41,892 nucleotides of DNA, from positions 1 through 41,892 of the IMG/VR virus record IMGVR_UViG_3300040985_001119. One strand, given 5' to 3'. This stretch comes from a virus. Its lineage: Duplodnaviria; Caudoviricetes. The notes below the pieces were generated by a model. That model had not been told where the DNA came from. It saw only the letters and a program-made list of their open reading frames with translations, and did not search any database. This document shows, in pieces, positions 4,654 through 33,757 of this stretch. Each line of letters opens with the position of its first letter. Within the stretch, counting starts at the first letter, position 1. The position numbers and the translations under genes are program-made.

Positions 4654-5221
4654 GTTGTCGTCGCAATTTCCCGAGGTCAACTTGTGTGATGAATATGTCA
4701 TACAACGGCCCTCTCATCGCACTGCGGGAGTTCTCGTCAAGATGCGGGTTCATAATAAAATCTACTAACATCAAAAGATCTTTCTCGGAGAACTTAATAT
4801 GCACCGCTTCTTCCGCAACAACGGCTCGACTCTCATCGGCCTCATCATCTTGTTCGGCATGGCCGTCGTCCTCTACAGTCTCTTCAGTAGTATCTGAGTA
4901 AGTGAATCCTCCTGGCTTCTCATTGTTTACGATTGTGTTCCCGGTAAAGATTACACGTGGAGTCTCTTCTTCTCCATCTAAAGGGGTAAGGGCGTCAAGT
5001 CGCTGGAAGATTGCGTTATCCCTCTCTGAGTGCCAATCGGCGTGATCGTTCATTTTCTCGGCTTGCCCGACCAGTAGTTCCAGAACACGCGTGTAGTGGG
5101 CGGTGAGGGACTTGAGTTGCTTCTCCTGGGCTATGTTTTCTCTCTCGGCACAATGGTACAGCGCAAATAGGTCCGCAAACTTCTCTCCATCGGATTGTTG
5201 CATGAACTCTCTTGTTGTCAT
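4643..5221 (-). CDS. Hypothetical acidic protein
   Basis: 192-aa ORF, ATGA overlap with the upstream gene. Confidence 0.6.
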   Translation of the reverse strand: MTTREFMQQSDGEKFADLFALYHCAERENIAQEKQLKSLTAHYTRVLELLVGQAEKMNDHADWHSERDNAIFQRLDALTPLDGEEETPRVIFTGNTIVNNEKPGGFTYSDTTEETVEDDGHAEQDDEADESRAVVAEEAVHIKFSEKDLLMLVDFIMNPHLDENSRSAMRGPLYDIFITQVDLGKLRRQLNP

Positions 5222-5525
5222 CCCGATTCTCCTTGTCTTGTTGTTTCATTTCGGCCTGTATCGTGGGTGGCTGGCGAGGATGCCCGGTCCGTGGTGGAGT
5301 GAGCATTTTTACGCCGTTCTCCTTCTCTATGCTCTCCCACTATTTGATTTATCCAGTACTCTACAATGGGTACTCGTAACCGTTGTTCTATCGATTGCAT
5401 TAGACGATTTATTTCAACACATACGCCGACTGAGCGATCCCAATTACCGCTCCTGGCTACATCTTCGCACTTGGTACTGGAGTTCGTGGCTTCAGTGGAA
5501 ACTGGGGTTAGGTGACCGCCCGTAG
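5202..5525 (+). CDS. Putative multi-TM membrane protein antisense to the minus-strand operon
   Basis: Three hydrophobic segments, Trp-rich, IALDDLFQH; weak RBS. Confidence 0.45.
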   Translation: MNSLVVIPILLVLLFHFGLYRGWLARMPGPWWSEHFYAVLLLYALPLFDLSSTLQWVLVTVVLSIALDDLFQHIRRLSDPNYRSWLHLRTWYWSSWLQWKLGLGDRP

Positions 5526-5637
5526 CGTAGCAAGCGGGGCAAAACCAGTATCTTCTATTGTAGAGTTTTCCACGGAACACTCTACGGAACTTCCTCAGAT
5601 ACTTAGGCCCTCCGCAAGTATTACACAAGTCACTCAT
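5218..5637 (-). CDS. Zn-ribbon protein with long C-terminal extension
   Basis: CNTC...CPAC in the first 37 aa; GGGGTG RBS; stop overlaps the next ATG (ATGA). Confidence 0.5.
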   Translation of the reverse strand: MSDLCNTCGGPKYLRKFRRVFRGKLYNRRYWFCPACYATGGHLTPVSTEATNSSTKCEDVARSGNWDRSVGVCVEINRLMQSIEQRLRVPIVEYWINQIVGEHREGERRKNAHSTTDRASSPATHDTGRNETTRQGESG

Positions 5638-10451: not shown

Positions 10452-10594
10452 ACCGTAAGACGCAGATGAAGCTATACTCCCGCAAATACAGGAAGGAGAA
10501 TCCTGAGAAGATCAAGGAGGACAATGCGAAATATTATCGCCAGCGGAATCTGAAAGAGGTCGAGAGAAGGCTCAAAGCACTGGGGGAATCATGA
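10448..10594 (+). CDS. Small basic protein
   Basis: RKYRKENPEKIKEDNAKYY repeat-type motif; ATGA overlaps. Confidence 0.55.
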   Translation: MNRKTQMKLYSRKYRKENPEKIKEDNAKYYRQRNLKEVERRLKALGES

Positions 10595-10800
10595 CAGACC
10601 GAGCACCGAAGGATAATCTGTGGCACGTAACGGACTATGACGGCAGTATCCAGGTGGTGATAACTACGACCTGTGAGGCTATGGCAGATGTGGTCATCTT
10701 TTCACATATGCATGATGGCAAGAGGGTTGTCGATGCCGCCTTCCCGAACTACAGGAGTGTACGGTTGGGGGTTATTCCTTTGACTCCTGACGACTCGTAG
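10591..10800 (+). CDS. Hypothetical protein
   Basis: ATGA overlap, GGGGG RBS. Confidence 0.5.
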   Translation: MTDRAPKDNLWHVTDYDGSIQVVITTTCEAMADVVIFSHMHDGKRVVDAAFPNYRSVRLGVIPLTPDDS

Positions 10801-10808
10801 TGCATATT
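10780..10808 (+). promoter_or_regulatory. Candidate promoter of the methyltransferase leader
   Basis: TTGACT-N17-CATATT immediately before the structured leader. Confidence 0.4.
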
Positions 10809-10812
10809 GTAA

Positions 10813-10905
10813 GTCCCGGCGGGTAGCTCCTGCTAATCTGGACACATATGCCCCACTTCAGTGCCTCATTCACTGGGGTGGGGCTACACTAAATGAGGAG
10901 TGTAG
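10813..10905 (+). ncRNA. Structured 5' leader with kissing loops sequestering the SD
   Basis: 14-bp hairpin 10850-10884 (loop CCTCATT) and hairpin 10885-10904 (loop AAATGAGG); loops complementary over 7 nt. Confidence 0.65.
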
Positions 10906-10906
10906 A

Positions 10907-11840
10907 ATGATCTGTAATGCTGATGCACGACAAATTCCCCTAAGTAATAATTCCGTTCAATGTGTCATAACGTCCCCGCCCTATTTCGGTTTAAGAGACT
11001 ACGGCGTCGGCGGTCAAATCGGCCTTGAGGATTCCCTTGAGGATTACATCGAGGCTTTGTGCTGTGTCTTTGACGGCTTGTGGGCTGCCTTGAGGGATGA
11101 CGGCACTGTGTGGTTGAATTTAGGTGACAGTTATGCAGGAAACAATTCGAGGGCTTCCCACGGGGGGCGGGCAGGATTCGGTACACCTCGGGAATGTATC
11201 GTAAAGCGAGGAACTAAATCTAAGGACCTAATGTTCGTGCCTCATAGGGTAGCGATTGCCCTACAGGAGAGAGGGTGGTACGTCAGGCAGGACATTGTGT
11301 GGCACAAGCCTAACCCGATGCCTGAGAGCGTTACAGATCGTTGTACGAGGGCGCATGAGTACATCTTCATGCTTACTAAGTCTCCGAGGTACTACTATGA
11401 TGCTGCTTCTATCAGTGAGCGTGCACAGCCGCATCTCGGTAAGGTACTTGATGTGCGATCAAGTGGAACAGGTTTAGCGCGTGCCGGTATAAGTGGCAAC
11501 CCTGATAGAGCAGGTAATTTTCTTTCAACTAACGGCTTTGCTAACAAGCGATCTGTCTGGACTGTAACAACGAAGCCCTTCTCTGGTGCTCACTTTGCGA
11601 CATTCCCCCCCTGATTTGGTAGAGCCGATGATATTAGCAGGGTGTCCCGAGGGTGGTGTCATCCTCGATCCGTTCTGCGGGTCTGGTACGGTAGGGATGG
11701 TGTGCAGGAAACATTCACGCAAGTTTGTAGGTCTGGATTTGTCGATGGAATACTTGTCTACTCTGGCCCTTCCGAGATCGGAACAGCAGCAGACAAAAGC
11801 GGCAATCGAAGAACTCCCCTTGTTCGGGGGCATAGAATGA
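10907..11840 (+). CDS. Site-specific DNA methyltransferase (N4-C/N6-A, beta class), split by a +1 frameshift at 11605-11614
   Basis: VITSPPY catalytic motif and HFATFPP in frame 0; DLVEPMILAGCPEGGVILDPFCGSGT SAM-binding motif in the +1 frame. Confidence 0.88.
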
Positions 11841-12235
11841 TGGAGCGAGGCAGGATAATCATGAGCAGACAAGTCTTCTATGACATCAAGAAGAGGTATC
11901 CACAGTCTCCGCATTTGTATGAGGTCTATACTCATCTTGTCTTTCAGGCGTCCTATCATCCTGAAATGATGGGTAGTTTTGACACTACTAATATGGATAT
12001 TTCTGAGGATCTCGACCTGTCTTACGGCAAGGTTCGGAGTGCTATCCGGAGACTCAAAAACATGGGCATGATTACGGTGAAAAAGAGGAGTGTTGGGGGA
12101 GAGAACGTGGGCATTCGGGTGACGATTCAGGACTACGAAATGCTCCATCGAGCGTTTGAGGACAGAACAGACCCCAGAGCAGACCTCCGTGCATCTCTAA
12201 CCGTAAGTGGCCCAAGCAGTACTGAAGATTCCTAA
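11837..12235 (+). CDS. Winged-helix replication initiator-like protein
   Basis: GRIIMSR, YTHLVFQA, DISEDLDLSYGKVRSAIRRLKNMGMI and VTIQDYE resemble phage replisome-organiser N-termini. Confidence 0.6.
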   Translation: MMERGRIIMSRQVFYDIKKRYPQSPHLYEVYTHLVFQASYHPEMMGSFDTTNMDISEDLDLSYGKVRSAIRRLKNMGMITVKKRSVGGENVGIRVTIQDYEMLHRAFEDRTDPRADLRASLTVSGPSSTEDS

Positions 12236-12343
12236 AAAGCCACAGAACAGACCCCATGACAAACAAGTACTTTAAGCAAGGTGTTAAGTAACAGTACAAG
12301 TACAAGTTCTCGTATCTGTACCAACCTGTAGTACCACAGTACT
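12162..12343. repeat. Iteron-like repeats (candidate replication origin)
   Basis: ACAGAACAGACCCCA at 12162 and 12242; seven GTAC within 12218-12343. Confidence 0.45.
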
Positions 12344-12364
12344 TAGAAAAGAGAGGGAGAAATT

Positions 12365-21033: not shown

Positions 21034-21477
21034 ATGGCTGAACTTGCGGGTAAGTTTGAAAGTGTAAGTCAGGAATGGGAAACACCAGACGATTTGTATG
21101 AGCGGCTGGATGTACTCTATGGCTTTACTCGGGATGTGTGTGCTGCGGAGGACAATAAGAAGTGCGATGACTTCTGGTCCACTTCAAACTCTTGTTTGGA
21201 CAAGGAATGGGACGGAGTAAATTGGATGAACCCTCCTTACAAGGACTTGAAGAAGTTCGTCCAAAAAGCCCATGATGAGGCATTTCGGGCAGTCACGGTG
21301 TGTCTTATTCCAGCCAGAACGAATACTAAATGGTGGCATGAACTTTGTATGCAGGGAGAGGTTTCTTTTATCTGTGGCCGTCCCAAGTTTAAGGGTTGTG
21401 TGCATGGGTTGCCTCAGCCCCTGGCTCTTGTGGTGTTTGGTCAAGGGAGTGGGGTTATGGAGTCTTTTTATCTTTAG
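21034..21477 (+). CDS. Phage DNA N6-adenine methyltransferase (Dam-like family)
   Basis: EWETP, DVCA, WMNPPY, LIPARTNTKWW, GRPKF. Confidence 0.9.
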   Translation: MAELAGKFESVSQEWETPDDLYERLDVLYGFTRDVCAAEDNKKCDDFWSTSNSCLDKEWDGVNWMNPPYKDLKKFVQKAHDEAFRAVTVCLIPARTNTKWWHELCMQGEVSFICGRPKFKGCVHGLPQPLALVVFGQGSGVMESFYL

Positions 21478-21575: not shown

Positions 21576-21657
21576 GCTCCCGTGGCGAAACTGGAAGACG
21601 CAACAGACTTAAAATCTGTGGCCTAACGGCGTGGAGGTTCAAGTCCTTCCGGGAGCA
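21576..21657 (+). tRNA. trnL: tRNA-Leu (anticodon UAA), CCA not encoded
   Basis: GCTCCCG/CGGGAGC acceptor, ACAGA-CTTAAAA-TCTGT anticodon arm, long variable arm, GGTTCAAGTCC T arm, discriminator A. Confidence 0.93.
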
Positions 21658-22801: not shown

Positions 22802-23090
22802 CTCTCTCACTGAAATGCACTACCATGAGACGATCTACCGCAAGGGTGGATTGAAAGAGTATCGGGAGCAAGATGTTCCCGTGATAGACTCAGTGGGCAC
22901 GACGACGAGGGAAGCCGTGCCTGTAGACTGCTTTATGTGCCACAAGGAGTTCTATGTACGCGAGGGCGAAGAGAACCTCTGTTTTTCGTGCAGGGACTCG
23001 GTTAAAGGTGTCCGGAAGCGGTACGATAGAATGATGAAGAGGTTGGAGAAGGCCGAGAAGATGGCGAATAACGAAGTTACTGATTGGTAG
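22794..23090 (+). CDS. Zn-finger protein
   Basis: CFMCHKEF...LCFSCR. Confidence 0.55.
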   Translation: MRDSLTEMHYHETIYRKGGLKEYREQDVPVIDSVGTTTREAVPVDCFMCHKEFYVREGEENLCFSCRDSVKGVRKRYDRMMKRLEKAEKMANNEVTDW

Positions 23091-31503: not shown

Positions 31504-31528
31504 GCGGGGGAGGGAAACTTCCCCCGCA
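31504..31528 (+). promoter_or_regulatory. GC-rich hairpin between the capsid genes and the glycosyltransferase (attenuator or stabiliser)
   Basis: GCGGGGGAG-GGAAA-CTTCCCCCGC with no U tract, directly before AGGAGG. Confidence 0.5.
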
Positions 31529-31537
31529 GGAGGGTAT

Positions 31538-32380
31538 ATGCGAGAGCCGAAAGTATTGATAGCAACACCGAACTACACTAACACAATGTCTTCGGAGGCC
31601 CATGTCTCTCATATCGAGGCTATGTGTCACTGGTCCAAAATAGGGTTGGACTTCTCTGCGGACCTAGTTGGTAGGACGTTCGTTCACTTTGCACGTACAC
31701 AACTCTGCCAACTCGCGTTGGATGGAGACTTCACTCATATCTTCTGGCTTGACGATGACGCTACTATAGAACCAGATTTACTGCCGAGACTCTTAAATCA
31801 CGATAAAGATGTCGTAGTAACGCCTTACCCGATGAGACGGCCACCCCATGAGATAGGGATATTGGTCTCGTCTATTGGTGACTTCAAAAACCATGATTCA
31901 TACAGGAACTTTACCACATTGGATCTCGACCAGGGGTTGGTTCAGATCGACGGCGGTGGAACTCATGCGATGCTGATGAAGGTAGATACTTTGCTCAAGG
32001 CTGGTATCGCCGATCCTTCTTTGGAGCTGGACGACGGGTTTTACTCTCTTAAAGAAGAGAACGAGCGTGGTGCTCCCTATGTGATGATGCCGAAGAGCGG
32101 CACGGAGGATATGTATCTTTGCTACCGATTAAAACTAAAAGAAGTGGAGCTATGGTGTGATACAGACGTTTGGGCGGACCACGTTGGTTTTGCTCCAGTC
32201 ATTACTCGCGCCCATACAGAAACGATGGAAGGATTATCCCAGTCATCCGCAGAAACAAGAAATAGTATCCCGGTGCTACAGGTGCGGGAAGGACGTGACG
32301 ATGTTCTCAGCCGAAGTGGGCAGGTGTCGGCACTGCGCGGGCCAACAGTGGACAGACAGCGGAAGGCTTCGCTCTCTTGA
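31538..32380 (+). CDS. GT-A fold (family 2-like) glycosyltransferase
   Basis: KVLIATP, ARTQL, THIFWLDDD (DxD), GGTHAMLMK, TEDMYLCYR, LWCDTDVWADHVG. Confidence 0.85.
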   Translation: MREPKVLIATPNYTNTMSSEAHVSHIEAMCHWSKIGLDFSADLVGRTFVHFARTQLCQLALDGDFTHIFWLDDDATIEPDLLPRLLNHDKDVVVTPYPMRRPPHEIGILVSSIGDFKNHDSYRNFTTLDLDQGLVQIDGGGTHAMLMKVDTLLKAGIADPSLELDDGFYSLKEENERGAPYVMMPKSGTEDMYLCYRLKLKEVELWCDTDVWADHVGFAPVITRAHTETMEGLSQSSAETRNSIPVLQVREGRDDVLSRSGQVSALRGPTVDRQRKASLS

Positions 32381-32486: not shown

Positions 32487-33116
32487 ATGTATCTTGAACA
32501 CGGGCAAGAGCACGCACATAAGTTGATAATCTCGCATGATCCGTACAAAACTGGTAAGACGTACTTTACAGATGTCTTGTTTCCTCAAGAGGTAAAGGGT
32601 ATAATCGATACATGGGGTATTGATGAGGGTGCTGCCGCCATGTTAAAAGGCTTTGTTATGGCTTTGAAGCCGGAAGTGATTCTTGAGACAGGAACACACC
32701 GAGGGAGAAGCACAAGGGCATTAGCCGAAGCAGTCCATGAGAATATGACGGGACATATCTGGACGGTGGATATGGACGACTATGGCCTCATGACGGAGGG
32801 AGCACTCAGGGAGCATGAAAAAACCTTGGTGACGCAGGTAGTGGGCAAGACGCCTGAAATACTCTCTGAGGACATCCTGGGTACTCTCAGGGGCATAGAG
32901 TTTGCTTTCTTGGACGGAGATCATACACCAGAAGGTATAGAAGCCGAGCTTGAATATGTAAGACAGAGGCAGGCTGATGAATGCCTTGTTCTGGTGGATA
33001 ATTCTCGGGACGAGGGATGGCCTGACGAGAAGAAGTTCTTTGAGAACTTCCCAAAGGAAAACGCTGTAAGTCTTCAGACGATGTGTGGAATGCATCTGAT
33101 TCGGATGGTAAAATGA
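32487..33116 (+). CDS. Class I SAM-dependent O-methyltransferase (Methyltransf_24-like)
   Basis: VILETGTHRGRST, WTVD, FAFLDGDHT, VLVDN. Confidence 0.85.
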   Translation: MYLEHGQEHAHKLIISHDPYKTGKTYFTDVLFPQEVKGIIDTWGIDEGAAAMLKGFVMALKPEVILETGTHRGRSTRALAEAVHENMTGHIWTVDMDDYGLMTEGALREHEKTLVTQVVGKTPEILSEDILGTLRGIEFAFLDGDHTPEGIEAELEYVRQRQADECLVLVDNSRDEGWPDEKKFFENFPKENAVSLQTMCGMHLIRMVK

Positions 33117-33757
33117 TCGAGGACTATACAACAACCCACACGGGATCAGAGACAGCCAATTTGAGGGCTATGTTGGGAAGGAAAGCTCACACTACCGGTA
33201 GGATATATCAGGTGGATGCCATGTTTCCAAATAGTCTTGAAGGATCTCTGGACATGGCGAGTGTAGATGAGGACTTTGCTACTCTCTTGCAGGGTTTTGT
33301 CATGGCCCTTAAACCTAGGGTCATTCTTGAAACTGGTACGCATAAGGGGAGGTCTACGAGGGCAATATGCGAGGGGCTGAAGGAGAACGGACAAGGGCAT
33401 ATCCATACGGTAGATATGGTGGATTATGGTGTGATGGCCTCCGGTGCTATTCGGGACGACGAGAAGGAGTATGTAACTCAGGTAGTGGGGAGAACTCCTG
33501 ATGTGTTCTCTGAAGAGCCTTTGAAGGATCTGATGGGCATTGACTTCGCTTTTATAGATGGCGACCATACTCGCCAGGGGTTGATAGAAGATTTACAATA
33601 TGTAGATGCTCATAGAGATAACGAGTGCTTAGTGCTCGTCGATAATGCCCGTGATAATGACTGGCCGGATGTGGAAGAGTTCTTCTCTGATTACAGGGAT
33701 TACCCGAACTTTCTTTTACTCACTTGTGTAGGAACGCAGATCATTCAAATGAGATAA
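33113..33757 (+). CDS. Class I SAM-dependent O-methyltransferase, tandem paralogue
   Basis: VILETGTHKGRST, HTVD, FAFIDGDHT, VLVDN. Confidence 0.85.
   Translation: MIEDYTTTHTGSETANLRAMLGRKAHTTGRIYQVDAMFPNSLEGSLDMASVDEDFATLLQGFVMALKPRVILETGTHKGRSTRAICEGLKENGQGHIHTVDMVDYGVMASGAIRDDEKEYVTQVVGRTPDVFSEEPLKDLMGIDFAFIDGDHTRQGLIEDLQYVDAHRDNECLVLVDNARDNDWPDVEEFFSDYRDYPNFLLLTCVGTQIIQMR

Follow-up and report, generated by a model that had tools for sequence, protein, structure and literature searches.

What sets the expression of a phage DNA methyltransferase when its gene is preceded by two abutting hairpins whose loops match each other perfectly over the Shine-Dalgarno sequence (SD)? The locus lies in a linear virus record of 41,892 bases, analysed over its full length and hereafter called the window, with an estimated completeness of 41%; the record turns up in marine runs, its structural genes are podovirus-like, and its capsid protein is Mx8/Mx9-like (26-27% identity). 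The original prediction proposed a riboswitch-like or protein-responsive OFF switch, in which the two loops kiss and thereby occlude the SD. The reading preferred here, to which we give an even chance of being right, is that of a static leader that stabilises the message and dampens translation, with no need for a ligand, and in which the loop match is incidental or at most a minor latch.

Architecture of the leader and its gene neighbourhood

The hairpin leader lies in a 106-nt gap between a 69-aa ORF (10591-10800), for which no relatives were found, and the gene of a PF01555 DNA methyltransferase of the beta class, N4/N6 type (10907..11840, + strand), in which the SPPY motif comes first and DPFCGSG last. 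The next gene encodes a winged-helix, DnaD/O-like replication initiator (11837..12235, + strand) and overlaps the methyltransferase stop (ATGA), both genes being likely carried on one transcript. Relatives of the initiator were found only within its own cluster, and those of the prim-pol are just 36-41% identical.

The 9-mer TAGAATGAT occurs at both ends of the methyltransferase gene (10903-10911 and 11833-11841), each time in a stop/start overlap, with a third copy at 23027; judged from their positions, the paired copies could mark the insertion of the methyltransferase gene before the initiator. In addition, the region at the end of and behind the initiator gene (12160-12345) contains repeats, ACAGAACAGACCCCA twice and ACAAGTAC-like elements several times, as possible origin iterons.

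The leader comprises three hairpins on the + strand, all as first drawn in coordinates and letters: (i) a 5' hairpin, hp0 (10813..10843; -11.0 kcal/mol), which contains CTCCT, a second anti-SD-like stretch; (ii) P1 (10850-10863/10871-10884; -24.7 kcal/mol), a GC-rich stem of 14 bp with two U-G pairs, closed by the loop L1, CCTCATT (10864-10870); and (iii) P2 (10885-10890/10899-10904), a 6-bp stem of -4.4 kcal/mol, or -7.0 kcal/mol if C10884 pairs with G10905, closed by the 8-nt loop L2, AAATGAGG (10891-10898). The junction between P1 and P2 is 0 nt. L1 is the exact complement of 10892-10898, an anti-SD, so the perfect 7-nt complementarity of the loops is present as claimed. The SD, GAGGAG (10895-10900, + strand), stands 6 nt before the ATG at 10907, within the second hairpin as stated; GAGG is in the P2 loop and only AG in the P2 stem, a detail absent from the original prediction, as is the lack of a linker between P1 and P2.

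With a folding energy of -52 kcal/mol (z -4.16), the region outdoes all 200 shuffles, and one 60-nt window over the leader ranks third among all such windows on both strands. The nested fold, with hp0, P1 and P2 in a row, is dominant at 37 and 10 °C whichever start point is taken, provided that P1 is included. The one leader-spanning run not flagged as a possible source of the record, X3, yielded a contig with an identical leader. Neither of two RNA runs produced a contig across the leader, a result that carries no weight either way.

Two promoter candidates precede the stems. Promoter A (10780..10808, + strand) is a sigma-70 candidate with TTGACT, a 17-nt spacer and CATATT (9/12 positions), and its transcript would start near 10814-10815, at the foot of hp0; it is weak, since the scan gave 2 sites versus 3.6 expected. 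Promoter B (10831..10839, + strand) is an extended -10 candidate, TG-n-TAATCT, with a start near 10846, 4 nt before P1; sites of this type number 35 on the + strand of the window, one of them in 10701-10910. The scan for sigma-70 sites found none inside P1/P2, and no minus-strand promoter was found near the leader. An intrinsic terminator was considered and rejected, as there is no U run and the scan listed none. Furthermore, a five-codon mini-ORF, MRSVE (10893..10910, + strand), starts in L2, and its stop overlaps the methyltransferase ATG; it is probably untranslated, because its own SD would be buried in P1, at a cost of 30.9 kcal/mol to open.

Transcription from promoter A or B would likely yield the mRNA leader, in which P1 would fold first and P2 would stack on it. 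Terminal stems can protect the 5' end of mRNA, and P1, near that end, likely shields the message, while P2 likely dampens ribosome loading without locking it. The ribosome would seed on the looped GAGG and unzip P2, so that the methyltransferase and the replication-initiator gene coupled to it would be expressed at a moderate level. L1 would do little in this main fold because it sits some 14 bp off and is out of reach of the SD for as long as P2 is formed. By calculation without loop pairing, opening the ribosome footprint takes 11.5 kcal/mol, rank 18 of 34 plus-strand genes, an average accessibility at which the nested fold is not predicted to be OFF; the hairpins thus modelled likely turn methyltransferase translation down only modestly. 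An OFF state via an H-type pseudoknot is conceivable.

The leader among relatives and known systems

A total of 240 methyltransferase loci were collected from three scans, and closer relatives may be missed because the metagenome scan covered 28 of 64 parts. The closest methyltransferases are 59-63% identical to the window enzyme, 61-63% for those that keep the leader layout, and form one clade with it (SH-aLRT 100, in a quick tree of 47 rows whose careful search was unfinished). Third codon positions are 32-37% identical between the window and these sisters, with synonymous sites near saturation.

The sister leaders (L001:2411-2500, L082, L083 and L086:203-280) display a TATAAT box, a stem that begins 7 nt after it and closes a three-way junction, with two inner hairpins in place of L1, and then an SD hairpin of -1.2 to -9.8 kcal/mol. 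They have no Rfam match, and the changes among them fall in one loop or preserve pairing; hp0 is absent. The placing of promoter B resembles that of TATAAT in these four leaders, and opening the footprint in four sisters takes 7.7-17.0 kcal/mol. The layout, defined as a stem of at least 11 bp followed directly by an SD hairpin that ends at most 4 nt from the AUG, occurs in three of the five clade sister loci (L001, L082 and L083) and in 6 of 196 distinct homolog leaders, namely these three and one unrelated AU-rich lineage of three; it occurs in 0 of 33 other window genes and in 1-3 of 1,000 shuffles.

The outer 12 bp of P1 align with the 12-bp GC stem that closes the sister leaders. Seven of the 12 aligned pairs are identical, one is changed on one side, four are changed on both sides in a compensatory manner and none is broken, in a comparison of two lineages whose alignment was built with a model of the window structure and so leans to that model. 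Among the sister leaders, pairing holds in 98 of 99 cells, three pairs varying on one side only. The covariance model of the window leader matches L001, L082 and L083 at their methyltransferase starts with 14.9, 7.9 and 6.5 bits, versus up to 13.8 bits at unrelated places in 47 control loci and 8.2 bits at one control start, L112. Plain alignment of the leaders is weak, 48-220 of 1,000 shuffles scoring as well for L001/L082/L083.

Neither the sister leaders nor any of 194 distinct homolog leaders have the 7-nt loop match; the best among the latter is 6 nt, in one weak AU-rich case, and the searches turned up no second copy of the element or homolog that carries it. Covariation among homologous leaders, which had been put forward as a check, supports the stem, through the four both-side changes, and leaves the loop pair unsupported. 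The closest relatives thus keep the layout of stem and SD hairpin but not the loop match, which is best read as lineage-specific. The sisters mask the SD core by an adjacent CCUC stretch, whereas in the window L1 is the only close partner of the core, a hint that L1 may have a job. What stands of the structured switch over the methyltransferase SD is a real structured leader behind promoter-like sites, with a similar layout kept in sisters; a kiss with both stems intact and a riboswitch are not supported.

In the sisters, the leader layout tracks the methyltransferase and not the initiator; sister L006 has no leader. In L086 (203-300 and 1258-1301), the leader is split by an inserted gene, presumably Dcm-like by its sequence, which separates the stem from the SD hairpin, and the 3' strand of the stem is duplicated before a second methyltransferase. 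The genes behind the L001 leader look by their sequences like queD, queE and folE, a 7-deazaguanine cluster. Distant methyltransferase homologs in L152 (upstream of 216) and L112 (41-133) carry long GC stems over or beside the SD, which suggests repeated dampening of methyltransferase genes.

Beyond the sister clade, no leader homologs were found by IMG/VR patterns, Blastn, nhmmer or model searches. Specifically, (i) exact patterns in IMG/VR gave 0, 57, 20, 39 and 22 matches, the only leader match among the folds listed being L001 itself and the other folded matches listed being stems with a direct anti-SD strand, unspecific GC inverted repeats or stretches of coding sequence; (ii) Blastn against cultured phages matched the coding part only; (iii) nhmmer over 361 loci returned only self matches, as did (iv) model R1 over 200 loci and 80 virus records; and (v) 54 HNH loci, examined for nuclease-type loop-to-SD leaders, yielded no convincing case. 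No published description of the window leader was found, and supplements of RNA surveys could list it. Several candidate identities were discarded: a shared motif, CTACACnnAATGAGG, before the gene at 5218-5637 was chosen post hoc and falls within a coding region (at 3 mismatches, 11 matches versus 11.0 expected); descent of L1 and the P1 3' strand from the sister SD hairpin scored 12/20, equal to controls; and HDV-like or preQ1-like resemblances have no Rfam support.

In its working, the window leader most resembles the T-even hairpins at ribosome-binding sites (RBS) and the Mu mom leader, yet it falls outside both groups. According to the accessible sections of PMC2988022, T-even hairpins sequester the RBS of I-TevI/II/III, segB and Aeh1 mobE, and the hairpin of seg43(25) lies just upstream of the RBS. 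As in those cases, a structured phage leader covers or adjoins the SD, and the product of the gene may have to be kept low; P1 resembles the very stable hairpin directly upstream of the seg43(25) RBS (PMC2988022, same sections). Unlike in the T-even cases, where sequestration is very stable, P2 is weak (-4.4 to -7.0 kcal/mol) with the SD core in its loop and accessibility at rank 18 of 34; moreover, the sigma-70 scan gave no inner promoter, an extra anti-SD loop is present, and the gene is a methyltransferase.

In phage Mu, as outlined in the available parts of PMC6483171 and PMC3299994, a translation inhibition structure on mom is opened by Com. Common to both systems is a leader hairpin, closely preceded by another one, that governs a DNA-modification gene of a phage (PMC6483171, PMC3299994, same parts), but the window enzyme belongs to a different family and the inhibition is predicted to be weak. 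The Com zinc finger, PF10122, is absent at E<=1 from the record, which is 41% complete.

PeSL cassettes of T4-like phages, as portrayed in the accessible text of PMC4122927, consist of a sigma-70-like promoter with a stem-loop directly before it and an SD and start codon after it; a PeSL identity was rejected against that description, the window stems being downstream of both promoter candidates. The int-alpA RNA motif, RF02996, was found in 0 of 2 records at E<=10. If the stabilising and dampening leader is the true reading, its meaning is useful but modest: another example of a leader by which a phage adjusts a DNA-modification gene, its layout preserved in a small marine clade and not represented in Rfam.

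Reach and rarity of the L1 loop

Of the 105 pairs of adjacent hairpins in the window, only that with L1 and L2 has loops that match over 7 nt (7/7), and other loci gave one further distinct 7-nt match among about 5,070 hairpin pairs (1.2 Mb). A random 7-mer match has P of about 1e-4, and shuffling the loop letters restores 7/7 in 1,417 of 200,000 trials (0.7%). A loop-in-loop scan of 33,814 ATGs returned the window leader and one weak AU-rich case. Chance origin in one window, estimated at about 1e-3, is unlikely; over about 250,000 windows, such a match is expected now and then by chance.

Spatial reach was judged with A-form dimensions, helix coordinates and nearest-neighbour energies, which give simple estimates and not 3D models. 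With helix radii subtracted, the stem ends of a kissing complex are 49, 42 and 32 Å apart at junction bends of 30, 45 and 60 degrees, and a full U-turn still needs 11 Å versus the about 7 Å that a 0-nt linker provides. With unequal stems (14 and 6 bp) and no linker, an L1/L2 kiss within one molecule with both stems intact is therefore not feasible on these estimates, and the cis kissing-loop reading fails. The loop-loop duplex itself is worth -7.6 kcal/mol. Complementary loops, however perfect, do not by themselves establish a kissing loop, since stem lengths and linker must be checked. The same estimates leave L1 two ways to reach the SD, an H-type pseudoknot with P2 melted or a contact between two molecules.

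The pseudoknot would make L1 a working anti-SD latch: P2 would open and lend its 5' strand as the connecting loop, letting L1 pair with AAUGAGG; the nested fold would be ON and the pseudoknot OFF, and Mg2+, cold or a protein, either the methyltransferase itself or a different one of the phage, would shift the balance. We hold this latch, the leading alternative, to be doubtful, though with a substantial minority chance. The 7/7 match spans the SD core, and the best argument is the sole-partner position of L1, against the adjacent CCUC of the sisters. The 7-nt connector is too short with P1 intact, as it must span 49.7 Å and reaches 41-49 Å, but the structure becomes sterically possible once 1-2 bottom P1 pairs open, at +2.3 to +5.2 kcal/mol, when 47.3 Å is needed and 47-56 Å reached. 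In a rough estimate with assumed penalty terms, the pseudoknot forms have -21.8 to -28.2 kcal/mol versus -31.3 kcal/mol for the nested fold. The pseudoknot is thus a predicted minority state, about 3-9.5 kcal/mol less stable, a gap within what a bound protein can pay; no Com-like protein was seen in the 41% complete record, and neither loop covariation nor a match in the sisters favours the latch.

Two leaders could also join hand in hand (L1-L2' and L2-L1'), so that the mRNA silences itself as its concentration, and with it phage copy number, rises. The unequal stems that forbid the cis kiss give two equal 27-bp paths in such a dimer, and its perfect 7-nt loop pair has the length usual for stable kisses according to the accessible sections of PMC10907184; 27 bp, however, amount to 2.45 turns, which would phase a flat dimer poorly, and relatives do not conserve the loop match. 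A trans kiss is improbable. Should L1 work as a pseudoknot or trans latch, the leader would be a compact switch.

Control of the downstream initiator by a leader peptide and an antisense RNA, of the IncI/IncB type, would couple the five-codon ORF to the next gene and let an antisense RNA kiss L1. The overlap of the mini-ORF stop with the ATG, the continuation of the operon into a replication-initiator-like gene and the copies of TAGAATGAT at both ends of the methyltransferase gene speak for it. In what is accessible of PMC4705826, the repY/repZ system of ColIb-P9 likewise combines an operon that encodes a replication initiator, a short ORF upstream and a strong hairpin whose loop pairs close to the RBS; its pseudoknot frees the SD, whereas pairing in the window would cover it, the mini-ORF SD would be buried in P1 (30.9 kcal/mol), no antisense promoter is seen on the minus strand near the leader, and the sister layout follows the methyltransferase rather than the initiator. 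This form of control has little probability.

A role at the level of DNA or of promoter choice, as an operator or as a T4-type inner promoter that removes the inhibitory strand, would make the RNA reading secondary, and we give it very little credence. The pair CCTCATT...AATGAGGAG flanks a -10 box in several unrelated phage promoters among 57 pattern matches, and two promoter candidates are present; but both of them are upstream of P1, no TATAAT lies between the two 7-mers in the window, and the U-G pairs of the stem work on + strand RNA only, the minus-strand match having mismatches. In the unrelated phages L169, L171, L177, L179, L192, L193, L196, L202 and L211, CCTCATT is in the promoter spacer and its complement AATGAGGAG is the SD just after the -10 box, therefore read-through transcripts would mask the SD and promoter-born ones would not.

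A riboswitch reading of the leader is unlikely, and its specific form, in which SAM, SAH or cobalamin closes a kissing loop, is highly improbable: a loop-borne SD with a fully complementary partner loop, and an enzyme encoded downstream that uses SAM, stand against the failed kissing geometry, three simple hairpins without a junction or a conserved unpaired pocket, two other hairpins in place of the apex in the sisters, the missing loop match there and in the 194 leaders, and the lack of any Rfam family at gathering score or of any riboswitch at E<=10. The SAM-II/V, SAM-III and SAM-SAH models of Rfam have no match in the window leader or the sister leaders. The class II (env8-type) cobalamin riboswitch, which inspired the comparison, forms an L5-L13 kissing loop and needs a four-way junction and a bulged interloop helix, as given in the accessible sections of PMC10907184. 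The RBS in a small hairpin loop and a complementary upstream loop are common to both; judged against those sections, the window differs in having no P3-P6 four-way junction, L4-L6 T-loop, loop-loop bulge, interstem linker or Rfam match.

A C-run polymorphism and other features of the window

Within the methyltransferase gene, a C7 run followed by TGA (11605..11611, + strand) varies among runs, with C6 in X2 and X6 and C7 in X1, X3 and X4. Thus, the frameshifted form is present in three of the five covering runs and the intact form in two, and X1 may be the source of the window itself. The reading frame of the window allele ends at 11614 after 235 aa, short of the SAM-binding motif, and leaves the SAM-binding end of the enzyme in the +1 frame; an intact protein of 310 aa (P0122) is on record and may stem from the same samples. 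The differences listed between the compared C6 and C7 stretches include no further indel, and the window contains no C7 or G7 run other than 11605-11611. Among 143 motif-bearing homologs, six Cs occur in four and seven in none, and none is broken at a long C run.

As read from these alleles, the C6/C7 difference resembles an ON/OFF polymorphism of the phase-variation kind; one old mutation common to a sublineage fits the data equally well. The OFF allele may leak because CCC-UGA is prone to +1 shifts, usually up to 2%, with 15% in E. coli pheL according to the accessible part of PMC3082878. A thin literature search, including the accessible part of PMC13076061, found no case of a phage-encoded phase-variable methyltransferase. 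The polymorphism may matter more than the leader, as phage populations with both methylation-ON and methylation-OFF genomes could spread their risk between restriction systems that attack unmethylated DNA and those that attack methylated DNA. In a combined scheme, which we regard as distinctly unlikely, the unequal, abutting stems would keep the anti-SD loop away from the ribosome site of its own molecule, and the leader would close only as a protein-stabilised pseudoknot or a two-mRNA dimer and act as a dose-sensing OFF latch on the operon of methyltransferase and replication initiator, atop a C-run ON/OFF switch with a CCC-UGA leak.

Elsewhere in the window, the features at 21034-21477, 32487-33757 and 21576-21657 include a second, short methyltransferase of the Dam family (147 aa), two Methyltransf_24 genes in tandem and a tRNA with anticodon TAA. 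A 19-nt motif occurs three times (15066, 16111 and 16992), and its minus-strand reading provides the SD and start codon of short leftward ORFs. A strong GC hairpin (31505-31540, + strand) adjoins the SD of the gene at 31538, the ribosome site of which takes 29.3 kcal/mol to open, the highest value among the 34 genes.
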